DNA from: Eledone cirrhosa
Taxonomy: Eukaryota
DNA: 64,000 nt
NCBI GenBank assembly: GCA_964016885.1
Contig: OZ024748.1
Span: 53,630,001 to 53,694,000 of the forward strand
Direction of reading: 5' to 3'
Shown here piece by piece: positions 46,807 to 47,394 of the stretch. Position numbers and translations under genes: made by a program. The notes under the pieces were generated by a model, which did not search any database, was not told the origin of the DNA, and worked only from the letters and a program-made list of their open reading frames with translations. Numbering within the stretch: position 1 is the stretch's first letter; each line of letters opens with the position of its first letter.

Positions 46807-46850
46807 ATATATATATATATAGTTATGTAATAAACAACATAAGGCAATTA

Positions 46851-46911
46851 TTTCATTTACCAGTGGTTTCTTAAAAGCAAAAAAATTTTGCTTTCAATCA
46901 TCAGAATGAAA
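46851..46911 (-). ncRNA. Type I hammerhead ribozyme, all three stems intact
   Basis: Minus strand tttcatt-CTGATGA-ttgaaagcaaaa-ttt-ttttgcttttaa-GAAA-cc-act-gg-TA-aatgaaa; 7-bp stem I, long stem II, GUA site. Confidence 0.88.
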
Positions 46912-46971
46912 AAAATTCTGCAGTATTTATTGACGTTTTAGAATCCAACTTCAATAAATACTCCAGGATTT

Positions 46972-47032
46972 TTTCACTCTGATGATTGAAAACAAAATTT
47001 TTTTGCTTTTAAGAAACCACTGGTAAATGAAA
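46972..47032 (+). ncRNA. Type I hammerhead ribozyme (sense arm, one mismatch each in stems I and II)
   Basis: tttcact-CTGATGA-ttgaaaacaaaa...ttttgcttttaa-GAAA-ccactgg-TA-aatgaaa. Confidence 0.8.
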
Positions 47033-47394
47033 TAATTGCCTTATGTTGTTTATTACATAACTATTAAGCTCTGTTACCTACATAGAGCACTCTTTTTTCC
47101 TGGACTTTTCCGACGGAATTACTTAATTTATATATATATATACATATATATAATCATCATCATTTTACGTGTATATATATCTATGAGTATATATGTGTGA
47201 GTGTGTGTATATATATATATATATAGGCACCTATAAATGTATTTACCTGATTATACGTATGTTTGCCTATCTATCTCTCTGTACACACACACACACACAT
47301 ATATATATATATTTCGTTATGTAAATCTTTTTATACATTTTCTACACACCTGACAAATGCCAAAAAGCAGGCCTCATTGAGAACAAATAGATAA

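Follow-up and report, generated by a model that had tools for sequence, protein, structure and literature searches.

A probable 5'-truncated Penelope-like element with Hydra-clade motifs and a hammerhead in its pLTR fold-back in Eledone cirrhosa

The window, that is the whole 64,000-nucleotide stretch of Eledone cirrhosa DNA that was analysed, contains a short repeat locus set in (TA)n sequence. From left to right the locus consists of (TA)n, a fold-back with 119-bp arms and a 9-nt loop, 64 unpaired bases and again (TA)n (Table 1). The sense arm together with the tail makes up 182 nt (46947-47128), and the stretch 46936-47132 matches a genomic copy elsewhere (L031, 4764-4960) at 95%. Head-to-tail units, as in a retrozyme tandem array, were not found at the locus, which holds a single inverted pair. 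Contigs of four sequencing runs gave no piece across the locus junction and were dominated by other copies of the family; an assembly artefact is unlikely, since the junctions differ at 18 loci. Another long fold-back, with 184-nt arms at 84%, lies at 45659-46033. A tRNA-like match on the plus strand at 52028-52085 is barely over the Rfam threshold and is probably a SINE head.

Table 1. Features of the fold-back locus (positions in the window)
Feature	Position	Strand	Remarks
(TA)n target, left flank	46804..46821		last bases common to end of inverted arm
Inverted pLTR copy without tail	46819..46937	-	stops at first terminus of the family (the counterpart of 47064)
Type I hammerhead	46851..46911	-	same sequence as the family's commonest variant; cut predicted between 46858 and 46857
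Fold-back loop	46936..46946	+	corresponds to sense sequence of the element, upstream of the hammerhead; 2-3 bases shared with inverted arm
Sense pLTR arm up to first terminus	46947..47064	+	
Sense-arm hammerhead, degraded	46972..47032	+	changes at 46977 and 46992; predicted cut between 47025 and 47026
64-nt tail	47065..47128	+	at one end only; runs to second terminus of the family
Predicted 7-bp hairpin, A/C-rich 7-nt loop	47068..47088	+	at tail start, 4 nt past first terminus
(TA)n target, right flank	47129..47152		

The minus arm carries a complete type I hammerhead which ends in stem I. It is made up of a 7-bp stem I, the CUGAUGA core, a 12-bp stem II, GAAA and a GUA site, and its helix III contains A15.1-U16.1 and two C-G pairs under an ACU loop. 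The initial annotation had listed these stems, core and site and had placed the motif as a duplicate in a fold-back, and both descriptions were borne out. The MFE structure of the minus-arm 61-mer is essentially the hammerhead fold, at -11.8 kcal/mol. The motif had also been called the best-formed hammerhead of the window. A relaxed scan, in which 8 motifs were found, agrees with this, as the minus-arm motif has the lowest fold energy (-11.7, runner-up +1.0), although the scan scores contiguous helices only, which puts motifs with a bulge in stem II at a disadvantage. A strict hammerhead descriptor matched once in the window and in none of 40 block-wise dinucleotide shuffles, and a loose descriptor found 6 real cores where the shuffles averaged 0.075. 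Rfam at its gathering threshold gave no hammerhead match anywhere in the window. A further motif lies immediately to the left on the minus strand (46593-46547), with a short stem II that has a U-U mismatch at its base and a 4-bp helix III that closes an 8-nt loop; the sequence around it is very high in copy number and has a fold-back of its own (46688-46806).

The plus-arm copy had been described as differing by two substitutions. This is right for the 61-nt motif, whereas the whole arms differ at 6 of 119 columns. The change at 46977, in stem I, is absent from the 46 other copies, and that at 46992, in stem II, is shared by 3 of them, while the minus-arm motif has 31 identical matches among the loci examined (some of which overlap). 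Judging from these sequences, the plus arm is a decayed copy and the minus arm keeps the commonest variant of the family.

The base of stem II in the minus-arm motif is U-A and the usual G10.1-C11.1 is missing, a point absent from the initial annotation. This G-C pair is usual in type I hammerheads but is not obligatory. Across 51 distinct variants of the family, positions 10.1/11.1 are U-A in 41, A-U in one and unpaired in nine (C-A or A-A). Many of the Hydra motifs tabulated in PMC8557442 are likewise without G-C at the base of stem II; no rate data for changes at 10.1/11.1 were found in passages of PMC544870 and PMC2837043. In the alignment of the 51 variants, whose rows come from a few related subfamilies, 93.8% of cells are paired, a value reached in none of 500 shuffles and compared with 40-57% in slid controls. 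Double changes occur at 8 of 22 pairs, the clear ones in stem II coming from 4 of the 51 rows. The core and helix III are fixed by the search pattern and are therefore uninformative here, and covariation supports stem II clearly and stem I weakly.

The locus belongs to an abundant family. A search of the 3.0-Gb genome with the 182-nt sense part turned up 717 candidate places, and the 40 that were scored are 96-98% identical. The core-plus-helix-III pattern gave 9,034 matches genome-wide (overlapping matches counted) as against 1 for the reversed control. The inverted arm is present in 18 of the 30 closest loci, and in 15 of these 18 it ends at exactly the same base as in the window copy, the other three being at most 3 bases off. 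On the other hand, the fold-back point differs from copy to copy and the loop ranges from 9 to 1010 nt. Among 97 unselected pattern matches on one contig there were 11 divergent pairs within 600 bp. Of 116 alignment ends, from loci most of which were chosen for similarity to the window query, 45 lie at query 114-121 and 63 at query 174-182 (108 of 116 together). The family thus has two termini 64 nt apart. In tandem elements the tail sequence continues into the 5' UTR and the ORF.

A footprint of cleavage was looked for in the 5' junctions. Among the first 100 of 192 matches (55 loci, counted by hand, two rows being possible duplicates of a neighbour) the junctions do not pile up at the cut site; they are spread over query 60-87, and 29 of them begin upstream of it. 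Nine lie at the cut site itself (78-80) as compared with eight at 64-65 and ten at 85-87, which are comparable TA sites; fold-back copies are mostly invisible to the pattern used in this search. Two single loci may be mentioned here. At L012 (480-1490) about 15 tandem 57-nt units of inverted pLTR fragments lie upstream of a family copy, which suggests repeated template slippage. At G000:C7:42184004-42184058 a single copy is without the whole hammerhead between the stem I strands and is rejoined at the cut site.

The identity of the family was found through its coding copies. In L031 the repeat leads directly into a reverse-transcriptase ORF, which is followed by a GIY-YIG-type endonuclease. 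When loci were selected with DNA from the ORF start, the pLTR adjoined the 5' region of the ORF in 19 of 25, the query locus being one of these. When they were selected with endonuclease DNA, 10 of 14 had the pLTR downstream in sense; three of these ten pLTRs end at the tail, six at the first terminus and one earlier. The full pLTR-ORF-pLTR arrangement, which is the architecture of EN+ Penelope elements, is seen in 5 of the 14. The 5' truncation, the inverted 5' copy and the one-ended tail are likewise those of EN+ Penelope elements. The window itself holds no remnant of this ORF, all ORFs seen elsewhere are interrupted, and the longest piece has 502 codons. Pfam gave no reverse-transcriptase or GIY-YIG match on 10 ORF pieces, so the protein was identified from its motifs and by visual comparison with the published Hydra alignment. 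The ORF contains RWK, DKT, YRDD, CxCX5C, CxxC and CxH, and also VVY...YVG; CxxC and CxH stand around E and N, and CCHH, as read by eye, is absent. The first six of these motifs are given for the Hydra clade by Craig et al. (2021, PMC8557442), whose Hydra elements have a C-terminal endonuclease (EN+) and share with the present family RWK, DKT, CxCX5C, the lack of CCHH, a (TA)n target and a type I hammerhead in the pLTR. Insertion into (TA)n and a canonical hammerhead are thus Hydra features of this family as well. Our data point to a Penelope-like element (PLE) with Hydra-clade motifs, the clade being assigned from motifs and not from a tree. Naiad was rejected, as the endonuclease is C-terminal and a canonical hammerhead is present; Neptune and Nematis were rejected, as there is no CCHH and the linker is CxCX5C. 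The interior of the pLTR can hold 1-4 kb of microsatellite-rich DNA (L069 4768-7045, L070 3880-5987, L031 4150-4760), at the end of which, about 70 nt before the hammerhead, stand a polypyrimidine tract and CAG. This stretch is possibly a retained intron, and such introns are known for Penelope.

The closest known elements are those of the Hydra clade, for example Hydra-1_Obim of Octopus bimaculoides (PMC8557442), which has the same helix III (ACCA-n-UGGU) and matches at 24 of the first 44 residues, counted by eye. Its stems I and II differ, stem II being longer in the present family, and the account of it in PMC8557442 lists it without a pLTR, which the present family has; the 1-4 kb of microsatellite-rich DNA in the pLTR is a further difference. 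From these sequences the family appears related to Hydra-1_Obim yet distinct from it. Several features of the locus have precedents in the same paper. Penelope-13_HM has a hammerhead on both strands by way of a 5' inverted copy, as at the window locus; the Hydra hammerheads mostly have as helix III a 4-bp palindrome with a 1-nt centre; and an inverted 5' copy with a one-sided tail is described as typical of PLEs, although the tail is 64 nt here and 30-40 bp is the length stated there. The metazoan PLE hammerheads of Cervera and de la Pena (2014, PMC4209133) are also of type I with a long helix II and a small palindromic helix III, occur mostly in dispersed truncated copies, and form opposite-strand pairs 100-700 bp apart. 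They differ in their conserved G10.1-C11.1, which the present family does not have, and in a monomer helix III of usually 0-2 bp as against three pairs. The Poseidon element PAc of Anolis (Frangieh et al. 2024, PMC11167929) resembles the family in having a tail between two fixed 3' ends, an A/C-rich stem-loop near the ends, an AT-rich target and copies that run across the uncut hammerhead site. However, PAc belongs to a different clade, and its hammerhead and start sites overlap the ORF, whereas both lie upstream of the ATG in the present family. The hairpin at the start of the tail recalls the stem-loop at the reverse-transcription start sites of PAc, and by analogy it could have a similar role. 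No description of this family was found in the literature; Repbase and Dfam, which lay outside the search, may catalogue it. What is new is the Hydra-type Penelope family, while the hammerhead design and the inverted 5' copy had already been published.

It had been proposed that the minus-arm hammerhead may cleave as a monomer, which would leave the identity of the repeat as a Penelope pLTR unchanged. There is some ground for this, as helix III has three pairs and is worth about -1.2 kcal/mol within the junction, and in fungi and protists PLE hammerheads are active as monomers, albeit ones whose helix III is large (PMC4209133). The isolated 61-mer takes the hammerhead as its MFE structure, with a helix III probability of about 0.5 and the full core in 18% of sampled folds, so that some monomer activity is possible. 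Other results speak against it. Helix III is near-palindromic, and the lone hairpin is predicted at +0.4 kcal/mol as against -8.2 for its self-duplex. When two copies of the motif are folded together the double hammerhead reaches -32.6 kcal/mol, compared with -23.6 for two monomers, a gain of about 9 kcal/mol. Within its own 119-nt arm the MFE structure sequesters the core. The stem II base, with U-A, C-A or A-A in place of G-C and without a pair in nine of 51 variants, also argues against cleavage by a monomer. In addition, the metazoan PLE hammerheads assayed in PMC4209133 showed no activity as monomers and little as dimers, and the PLE hammerhead of PMC11167929 needed the protein of the element. 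Cleavage as a monomer is thus unlikely on these models, and a dimer mode is favoured.

A second proposal was that a transcript from either strand would meet a ribozyme, with the fold-back perhaps masking both. The geometry was confirmed, as the two motifs are on opposite strands, point apart and never occur within one RNA. This same geometry means that no dimer can form in cis at the locus and that, on either strand, each ribozyme is transcribed after its own complement. In every transcript prefix tested nearly all ribozyme bases were paired to the upstream arm, forcing the hammerhead in the full fold-back costs about 75 kcal/mol, and the plus-arm copy formed a hammerhead in 0 of 2000 sampled folds. 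With the complement made first and at this cost of unmasking, both copies are likely silent, as the proposal of masking had anticipated. It could be imagined that the host uses the fold-back, either as a two-way ribozyme or as a dsRNA and editing substrate in an intron, and a near-perfect 119-bp hairpin would form on either transcript. This is extremely improbable, as the same arrangement occurs at many unrelated loci, the sense copy is decayed, the arm differences in 18 fold-backs have no A-to-G excess (3 A>G and 4 T>C among 29 private changes), and a search of the window, in which short exons would be missed, recognised none of a host gene. Slightly less remote, but still very improbable, is a hammerhead that cuts as a monomer and lies in fold-backs (about a thousand, extrapolated from the 11 pairs among 97 matches) which mask themselves in host transcripts and could be unmasked by A-to-I editing or helicases. 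A very improbable reading is that of a non-autonomous retrozyme or MITE-like fold-back element in place of a stub of an autonomous one. The copies are short, non-coding, have inverted arms and number in the thousands, and animal retrozymes derive from pLTRs (bioRxiv 10.64898/2026.07.22.740005). Against this stand the lack of a head-to-tail array at the locus, the variation in loop length and fold-back point between copies, and the presence of the same sequence at the ends of copies that carry the ORF, as their terminal repeat. Inverted 5' copies are usual in Penelope elements, and the fold-back is one of these and not a two-way ribozyme trap.

The comparison was extended to the TATATA-helix-III motifs at 6.6, 9.7, 13.4 and 23.0 kb of the window (22873-23335; also 6560-6625, 9711-9772 and 13429-13489), which we equate with the family A of the initial annotation, the equation being our own. 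The locus had been regarded as unrelated to family A in sequence but similar in layout, and as an independent lineage. The two are indeed separate in sequence (best blastn E 0.074, not significant) and alike in having an inverted arm and a one-sided tail; what had been missed was the identity of the present lineage as the pLTR of a high-copy Hydra-type Penelope. Family A has 2,871 candidate places, and its inverted arm usually ends at query 145, which leaves a tail of about 90 nt. A remnant of a Hydra-type endonuclease was found near it at one of 30 loci, on the opposite strand. Family A is probably another Penelope end repeat.

Taken together, we consider it about 90% probable that the locus is a 5'-truncated stub of a Penelope-like element with Hydra-clade motifs and a hammerhead in its pLTR, likely inserted by target-primed reverse transcription with fold-back, its hammerhead likely working as a dimer and the locus itself likely silent. 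In tandem element transcripts the hammerhead would likely work weakly, as a helix-III-swapped dimer or with the protein of the element. The templates were uncut or re-ligated, since copies span the cut site. By analogy with PAc (PMC11167929), the element protein would nick AT-rich DNA and begin reverse transcription at two RNA sites, which would set the bounds of the tail. The cDNA, primed in (TA)n, would extend about 40 nt past the hammerhead in the upstream direction, halt there and then fold back on itself; such a stop fits the loop, which matches the sense sequence of the element and overlaps the inverted arm.

The present analysis annotates a young and abundant Hydra-type Penelope family and explains a striking hairpin as a routine product of insertion. 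A monomer-active ribozyme gated by editing would matter more if it were true, and nothing that was found points to it. The sharp ends 64 nt apart offer a test of the two-start-site model in a clade other than Poseidon, and the question of monomer versus dimer cleavage could conveniently be put to the family's thousands of copies, whose helix III is slightly longer.
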